DNA from: Parachlamydiales bacterium
GTDB taxonomy: Bacteria; Chlamydiota; Chlamydiia; Chlamydiales; Rhabdochlamydiaceae
Direction of reading: 5' to 3'
DNA: 64,000 nt
Assembly (NCBI GenBank): GCA_963705295.1
Contig: OY970065.1
Location: 1,184,001-1,248,000 of the forward strand
Shown: in pieces, positions 40,661 through 41,225 of the stretch
Layout: each line of letters opens with the position of its first letter
Position numbering within the stretch: the first letter of the stretch is position 1
Position numbers and translations under genes: made by a program
The notes under the pieces: model-generated
The model's database searches: none
Seen by the model: the letters and a program-made list of their open reading frames with translations, nothing else
Told to the model about the DNA's origin: nothing

Positions 40661-40702
40661 GGAATAGGAATTTTAACCACCGAGCACACCGAGATCACCG
40701 AG
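40661..40702 (+). repeat. 42 bp repeat copy 1 (3x CACCGAG subunits)
   Basis: GGAATAGGAATTTTAACCACCGAGCACACCGAGATCACCGAG, identical to 41184-41225. Confidence 0.92.
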
Positions 40703-40720
40703 AAGAAAATTGAGAAAAAA

Positions 40721-41131
40721 ATGTTCGAATTGAAAAAAGCAGCTTCAGATTATACGGAACGAGTTCATGATGCTTTGACAGGAAAAATCATAGGAGCAGC
40801 AATTGAAGTGCACCGAGTATTGGGCCCAGGATTGCTAGAGTCGTGTTACGAGGCTTGTTTAATTTACGAACTCCAAAACGAGGGACTAAAGGTTGAAAGG
40901 CAAAAAGCTGTACCTATCGAGTACAAAAATGTAAAACTCGATTGTGGTTACAGACTTGATCTATTGGTCGAAGAGAAAATCATTATTGAGATCAAATCGG
41001 TGACTGAATTGAATAAAATTCACGAAGCCCAATTAATTACCTATCTAAAACTATCTAGATGCAAAGTTGGACTTTTAATGAATTTTAACCTCAGAATTTT
41101 GAAACCTGGAATTCGAAGAATAATTCTTTAG
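40721..41131 (+). CDS. GxxExxY protein (PD-(D/E)XK nuclease superfamily)
   Basis: LGPGLLESCYE; RLDLLVEEKIIIEIKS; HEAQLITYL...GLLMNF. Confidence 0.93.
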   Translation: MFELKKAASDYTERVHDALTGKIIGAAIEVHRVLGPGLLESCYEACLIYELQNEGLKVERQKAVPIEYKNVKLDCGYRLDLLVEEKIIIEIKSVTELNKIHEAQLITYLKLSRCKVGLLMNFNLRILKPGIRRIIL

Positions 41132-41138
41132 TTTCTTT

Positions 41139-41170
41139 CTCGGTGATCTCGGTGTGCTCGGTGGTTTAAA
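41139..41170 (-). repeat. Inverted copy of the repeat core
   Basis: CTCGGTGATCTCGGTGTGCTCGGTGGTT is the reverse complement of 40675-40702. Confidence 0.92.
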
Positions 41171-41183
41171 TCTCTTCAAAAAA

Positions 41184-41225
41184 GGAATAGGAATTTTAAC
41201 CACCGAGCACACCGAGATCACCGAG
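41184..41225 (+). repeat. 42 bp repeat copy 3 (direct)
   Basis: Perfect match to 40661-40702. Confidence 0.92.

Follow-up and report, generated by a model that had tools for sequence, protein, structure and literature searches.

A GxxExxY gene framed by phased inverted repeats and its dispersed hairpin relatives in a Parachlamydiales genome

The closest described counterparts of the locus reported here are the REPIN/RAYT systems, which in the accounts given in PMC3116915 and PMC5581495 combine extragenic inverted doublets, folding as hairpins across a spacer, with a low-copy chromosomal nuclease gene situated beside its own repeat; several such gene-repeat pairs may occur per genome. A second arrangement is that of the TIRYT genes and TIRtrons, where, according to the description in PMC3733652, the gene lies within terminal inverted repeats and the repeats are also dispersed as singles and dimers. 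The protein family considered here appears in the compilation of PMC3424549, which also lists TnsA of Tn7, as PF13366 (PDDEXK_3), with the entry ‘Unknown’. The name GxxExxY is used in 10.1101/2021.01.26.428298, in a context unrelated to repeats, and in PMC12085832.

The window, i.e., the whole stretch of 64,000 nucleotides that was analysed (positions 1,184,001 to 1,248,000 of contig OY970065.1 of a Parachlamydiales bacterium), carries a GxxExxY gene enclosed by inverted repeats. Like the REPINs of those accounts, the GxxExxY repeats are mostly inverted extragenic doublets, and their family is physically tied to a cognate gene of low copy number; there are several gene-repeat pairs per genome, and the gene is rare on plasmids. 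Unlike the HUH/Y1 enzyme of the RAYT systems as characterised there, the GxxExxY enzyme is of the PD-(D/E)XK type; the arms are tandem non-palindromic words with a period of 8-10 instead of GTAG- or CGTC-tagged palindromes, and the hairpins have fuzzy ends and reach about 10 copies per family here. With the TIRYTs and TIRtrons, as described, the locus shares a gene within inverted repeats that are also dispersed in the genome, whereas TIRYTs retain the HUH motif and the catalytic tyrosine and the GxxExxY protein matches neither family.

MITEs that accompany autonomous DDE insertion sequences come as a full-length form with inverted ends, an internally deleted derivative and short gene-less forms. 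Full-length, internally deleted and gene-less forms exist for GxxExxY as well, but without a DDE transposase, fixed ends, a target duplication or near-identical self-made copies. The predicted PD-(D/E)XK core is shared with the Cas4/RecB-like nucleases and Hjc; unlike Cas4, the protein stands alone with 136 aa and has no C-terminal cluster of three cysteines. As a predicted PD-(D/E)XK nuclease with a putative tie to DNA mobility it resembles free-standing homing endonucleases and TnsA, yet it comes with no intron, intein or partner transposase and has a cognate family of dispersed repeats, which is absent in those systems.

The pairing of GxxExxY genes with repeats is real, widespread and apparently undescribed: we found no description of it in openly accessible papers, and repeat atlases may list the hairpins without the link to the gene. 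The link to cognate repeats gives a defined candidate substrate to a huge protein family and accounts for a frequent type of hairpin between genes. The spread of REP-like repeats without a RAYT becomes testable through a protein of 136 aa and an arm of 28 bp, two clades and two words serving as a built-in specificity control. The system is of the repeat-plus-cognate-nuclease kind; if the enzyme moves the repeats, it would be categorically new, and mobilisation of the hairpins would then amount to transposition by a route in which no recognised transposase takes part.

The locus next to rnhC and the GxxExxY protein

The initial annotation had described a perfect 42-bp direct repeat, an inverted 28-bp core and three CACCGAG units with a 9-nt period, and all of these match the sequence. 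Each copy of the direct repeat measures exactly 42 bp (40661-40702 and 41184-41225, at an offset of 523 bp), and the reverse complement of 41139-41166 is identical both to 40675-40702 and to 41198-41225. The features of the locus are as follows.

39697..40590, minus strand: rnhC (RNase HIII), the divergent host neighbour outside the element
40661..40702, plus strand: left arm (copy 1), a purine-rich shell plus the 28-bp core at 40675-40702 (CACCGAG x3, period 9), directed into the gene
40721..41131, plus strand: GxxExxY gene, 136 aa, PD-(D/E)XK fold, predicted nuclease, between copies 1 and 2
41139..41166, minus strand: right arm (copy 2), the inverted 28-bp core, starting 7 nt past the stop codon
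41167..41183, no strand: AT-rich spacer separating copies 2 and 3, within the hairpin loop region
41184..41225, plus strand: copy 3, a perfect duplicate of the left arm, added locally and not conserved, which folds into a hairpin together with copy 2

The periodicity of the arm is not due to chance: the 2.13-Mb genome has 25 nine-periodic triple-hexamer runs, and 21 of these are members of the CACCGAG arm family. Copies 2 and 3, which had been proposed to form a hairpin, do so with a free energy of -40.6 kcal/mol (z -13.7), a value equalled by 0 of 200 shuffled sequences. Matches in Rfam were to miRNA-type hairpins alone, all of them under the gathering score, and a promoter and terminator scan gave results at chance level. 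Among the sequencing runs listed, none of RNA contained the sequence; one DNA run with a small share yielded two short contigs and no joints.

The meaningful unit of the locus is formed by copies 1 and 2, the inward-facing arms, and copy 3 most likely arose from the left arm by local duplication. Local duplication resembling that of copy 3 is shown by two loci of other genomes, one in which the entire cassette is repeated in tandem, head-to-tail (L041, G046:C5:34400-38000), and one in which the right arm and the 3' end of the gene are tandemly repeated (L116). Outward gene-less pairs with the orientation of copies 2 and 3 were seen in other chlamydiae (G055, G059 and L027 of G052), so both doublet geometries are present in the hairpin family.

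The assignment of the 136-aa ORF between copies 1 and 2 to GxxExxY was borne out by scores of 158 bits against TIGR04256 (cut-off 35) and 153 bits against PF13366 (cut-off 22). These were the sole profile matches of the protein, with no match to HUH/Y1 or DDE transposases. Six residues, E40, D80, E90, K92, Q104 and Y108, are invariant among 55 close homologues and at least 90% conserved among 117 diverse homologues. The conserved QxxxY that follows the ExK motif is presumably the motif of the RecB/Cas4 type. A predicted structure (pLDDT 92.8) had its best fold match in Cas4 SSO0001 (Foldseek E 8.7e-4; Z 8.1, rmsd 3.2, 98 aligned residues) and also matched archaeal Hjc (Z 6.8), while HUH, DDE and recombinase folds were not among the matches listed. 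We found no sequence homologue with a solved structure, and the ESM Atlas gave no usable match beyond PF13366.

Cas4 is defined by a four-cysteine Fe-S cluster, three cysteines of which are C-terminal. Among the cysteines of the GxxExxY protein C46 alone is conserved at the level of at least 90%, and the one C-terminal cysteine is non-conserved. In the PD-(D/E)XK superfamily an intact motif set combined with the fold is read as the mark of an active nuclease, and the conserved motif set and modelled fold support such a reading here. The gene is under purifying selection: at the Flavobacterium hemN-cyclase junction discussed below its dN/dS was ~0.09, like that of hemN, for the 39 unsaturated of 231 pairs. 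The family comprises 23,230 clusters at 50% identity. Some of its members are tandem double-domain proteins (P0121, P0122, P0123 and P0125) whose second domain has neither the GxxE glutamate nor the ExK motif, and these may represent an asymmetric two-domain working unit.

Dispersed arms and flanking repeats in other genomes

The genome-wide occurrence of the repeat, raised as a question in the initial annotation, was observed: the CACCGAG arm recurs, each time without the gene, at ten additional loci across the 2.13 Mb. Nine of these loci are doublets of 77-110 bp, with the arms facing inward as in copies 1 and 2 in all nine cases, and the tenth is a solo arm nested inside another element. 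An inner spacer with a GAA-type mini-hairpin is common to eight of the nine doublets, from which we infer that the doublets were copied from each other and did not arise by separate gene deletions. All ten loci are situated at gene junctions (8 co-directional, 2 convergent and 0 divergent), with the hairpins after stop codons, as judged from a crude ORF set that covers about 92% of the genome; one locus has a 12-nt overlap with a putative start.

The genome contains two additional GxxExxY genes, and each of the three has its own dispersed repeat family. The second gene is internally deleted and has kept both of its flanking inverted repeats, made of ACCACAGAG words; the dispersed family of this word has 15 pattern loci, about 10 of which look real by eye. 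The third, divergent gene (C1:498586-498972) has an ACAGGAT-word hairpin 3' of the gene, and the dispersed family of that word has 16 loci. A hairpin in the C1:2042147 region belongs to the ACAGGAT family by position and sequence. At C1:1693549-1693740 and C1:1878075-1878229, CACCGAG elements are nested in CACAGAG arms, i.e., are chimeras of two families. A further periodic hairpin family, AACGAT, is present at 4 loci (C1:1245743 among them) and lacks a cognate gene here; in other chlamydiae its hairpins flank clade-B GxxExxY genes (L226, L227).

Flanks of this type were also found around GxxExxY homologues. The survey took the best 80 out of 593 loci confirmed in GTDB, from about 15 phyla by record title and with one archaeon. 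In a word-agnostic test, where the upstream flank was aligned against the reverse-complemented downstream flank, a score of at least 14 was reached in 40 of 79 scorable loci compared to 5 of 424 shifted control positions in the same loci. In a word-pattern test, inward arms were detected in 50 of the 80 loci and in 0 of 422 controls, a comparison that is partly circular because the pattern was derived from those same 80 loci. The spacing of the words was 8-10, mostly 9. At the 14 loci inspected for gene content, the cassettes are compact, begin right after the upstream stop codon and lie inside conserved operons, whose gene names, hemN and the cyclase excepted, were assigned by recognition.

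The protein clades differ in the words of their flanking repeats. The 80 near homologues had 70 loci with class-A words, 0 with class-B words and 10 with neither, while a search of Chlamydiota with the divergent third gene as query (clade B) gave 29 loci, 12 with class-B words, 0 with class-A words and 17 unmatched by the strict pattern. The tree comprised 78 rows, after removal of those that were short or carried a stop within the matched span, among them the window's own row; on it the word class changed once. A single split of this kind does not prove co-evolution.

Among 300 Chlamydiota genomes (one unscored), the gene was detected in 49 of the 55 genomes with at least 10 word-pair hits compared to 59 of the 245 others. 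Kin genomes are not independent, so the significance of this difference is overstated; the arms of the cassettes themselves contribute a few of the hits.

Explanations for the spread of the hairpins

We consider the chances somewhat better than even that the window holds a gene-bearing member of a dispersed hairpin family, whose predicted nuclease would cut its own arms and leave the spreading of hairpins and cassettes to host repair. The predicted nuclease would bind its own phased arms as a duplex, as a cruciform or as a single-strand hairpin, and a cut at or near the fold-back arms would initiate the movement. Host repair or recombination would complete the move by copying either the gene-less hairpin or the cassette as a whole into AT-rich junctions between genes, where insertions are presumably tolerated. 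Fuzzy ends and the lack of a target duplication point to recombination or repair instead of strand transfer by a transposase. The gene has few divergent copies per genome, is chromosomal, is long-lived at one junction and is sometimes swapped between species, a behaviour that by analogy may be called RAYT-like. A nuclease-plus-cognate-repeat system analogous to RAYT/REP with a different enzyme had been suggested initially, and the flanked homologues, the dispersed copies and the empty junctions support it.

Several observations count against spread by the nuclease. The fold match to Cas4 is generic and gives no substrate for the protein. The linkage of words to clades amounts to one deep split, which physical linkage alone would also yield. 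Two further periodic families of this genome have no cognate gene, and 6 of the 55 repeat-rich Chlamydiota genomes have no detectable gene, with a second search of 5 of these 6 also negative; gene loss is a possible explanation in both cases.

The main rival explanation, to which we give an appreciable but minor chance of being right, sees the arms as cis-regulatory or RNA parts of the gene (an operator array, a transcript hairpin or a processing site), bound or cut for autoregulation or a host function; the gene-less hairpins would then have arisen by gene deletion and been spread by host recombination without the nuclease. Such a role fits the tight placement of the arms around the gene, often overlapping its 5' end, the retention of both arms by the internally deleted gene copy, the position of the gene-less hairpins after stop codons and never (0 of 10) between divergent genes, and the purifying selection on the gene. 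On the other hand, the inner spacer common to the gene-less copies bears no relation to the gene, these copies sit where congeners have an empty junction, the hairpins of one junction are similar to arms of different junctions, and the gene is nearly always kept in repeat-rich genomes.

Rather improbable is the explanation that IS630, IS5 or Y1/RAYT enzymes move the hairpins as ordinary MITEs or REPINs, with GxxExxY as cargo that inserted into one of them long ago. In line with it, other TA-ended MITE-like families are present in the genome. A long palindrome with TA-rich ends at 42272-42436 of the window belongs to a large hairpin family separate from the arms described here. The ends of the elements argue against the MITE or REPIN explanation, being fuzzy and variable between copies. 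For 15 elements, the longest flanking direct repeat was 6.1 nt compared to 5.7 nt in a cross-paired null; no target-site duplication rose above the null, apparent 7-8-nt repeats included, and copy-specific complementarity outside the arms did not exceed that of cross-pairs. With Pfam and NCBIfam profiles, no DDE transposase was found between the inverted arms of the window cassette.

IS5-family elements do carry GxxExxY cassettes, which favours the cargo explanation. Two IS5-family types have captured and amplified cassettes in G046 (L033-L052), G430 (L289-L300) and G042 (L304-L306), including an 81-aa deletion derivative. The numerous matches in G046 (61) and G430 (14) were considered as cases of self-amplification and rejected, since shared flanks and transposase ORFs, which we take by eye to be of the IS5 type, mark them as IS5-family composites; the regions of 22 of the 61 and 12 of the 14 matches were inspected. 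The inspected copies of the three genomes included no near-identical full-length ones with unrelated flanks just past the arms, the IS5 flanks being shared. In the composites the IS ends are found beyond the arms, to which they bear no relation, an observation contrary to mobilisation of the arms by IS5. Capture occurred at least twice and is a route for the horizontal spread of the cassettes. A minimal mobile unit in the sense of an insertion sequence, as had been proposed, was not upheld: there is no target duplication, and the near-identical multi-copy cassettes are IS5 cargo. Of 72,556 records of plasmids, 8 contain the GxxExxY gene; it is absent from all 50,697 phage records and present on 3 viral contigs.

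As for Y1 enzymes, the window's genome has a single match, a broken fragment at a different locus. Hairpin-rich relatives were searched in two sets of five: Y1 transposases were detected in 1 of the first set and in 4 of the second, whose members were the most repeat-rich tested, and are present in 5 of 10 and absent from 5 of 10 overall. The absences and the broken fragment favour spread by the GxxExxY nuclease; the presence in the other relatives, four of them among the most repeat-rich, speaks for a RAYT-type mover and against that nuclease. Tandem class-A words, however, were seen at 0 of 9 Y1 loci (one Y1 locus has a degenerate arm nearby), and each protein clade of GxxExxY has its own word, both contrary to the MITE/REPIN explanation.

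Filled and empty junctions

A junction between hemN and a cyclase gene in Flavobacterium showed how such sites vary. Out of 151 genomes we collected 51 loci, chosen by their rank or manually, a set enriched for cassettes, and 47 of them were scorable: 25 had cassettes, 12 gene-less hairpins of the same class, 4 other hairpins and 4 a GIY-YIG-type insert, with 1 junction empty and 1 in another state. The cassette state changed 15 times on the host tree, with at least 8 of the changes forced by well-supported branches, and no fewer times than in shuffles. Ten of the 12 hairpins were closer to cassette arms of other junctions (5 compared) than to any of the 25 resident ones, though some margins of similarity were small; most of the hairpins are therefore not simple remnants of a resident cassette. 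These hairpins could also spread via ordinary homologous recombination, and the gene appeared significantly younger than its flanks in just 2 of 231 pairs, both of which count against spread by the nuclease.

Turnover of this kind brings in a free-standing homing endonuclease, which would cut the cassette-less allele of the junction and have the cassette copied in by gene conversion, with the hairpins as resistant or degenerate alleles; we regard it as quite improbable. One junction does hold the cassette across the genus with rapid turnover, the gene was significantly less diverged than both flanks in those 2 pairs and more diverged in 0, the last hemN codons are altered in some cassette alleles, and a GIY-YIG gene occurs at the same site. 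Against homing, near-identical proteins are found at unrelated junctions, which a long fixed target would forbid, the dispersal of gene-less copies is left unexplained, and the median synonymous divergence of the gene equals that of its flanks.

Scarcely credible is the clean excision of the initial annotation, in which recombination between the 42-bp direct repeats would release a 523-bp circle as the mobile form: the direct repeat is perfect and a relative (L041) has cassettes in tandem arrays, but an outward third copy occurs in just 3 of 80 loci, and the expected product is a solo arm, whereas 9 of the 10 dispersed loci are doublets, all nine oriented as copies 1 and 2, and one is a solo arm.

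Returning to the nuclease-and-repair reading, a broader version of it can be put forward tentatively, at somewhat less than an even chance. GxxExxY elements may be a new and very widespread type of minimal mobile DNA of prokaryotes, in which a PD-(D/E)XK nuclease of ~130 residues would read phased word arrays and cut fold-back arms, and repair would paste hairpins or cassettes, without tyrosine or DDE chemistry; GIY-YIG cassettes would form a parallel, competing class. The GIY-YIG inserts at the hemN-cyclase junction (L181, L183, L201 and L198) consist of a 94-aa gene with its own short flanking hairpins, and the hemN C-terminus is shortened there. They possibly represent a parallel nuclease-plus-hairpin family. 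The occurrence of this cassette and of unrelated hairpins at the same junction counts against spread by the GxxExxY nuclease, since hairpins at junctions, wherever they come from, may be under selection as RNA elements.

The empty sites anticipated in the initial annotation were found in part. Empty junctions exist in relatives: at one gene-less locus, a 144-nt hairpin insert is present here where the stop and start codons abut or overlap in 10 of 14 congeners. Beside rnhC, a nucleotide-level empty site was not found among 17 loci, the congeners being too diverged and the junction holding various inserts; GxxExxY was located within 1.5 kb of rnhC in 0 of 16 congeners. The inserts at the junction of rnhC and the HTH gene differ from congener to congener. 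The window also contains, at 41282-42268, a 328-aa ORF that has no Pfam or NCBIfam match and no counterpart beside rnhC in congeners.
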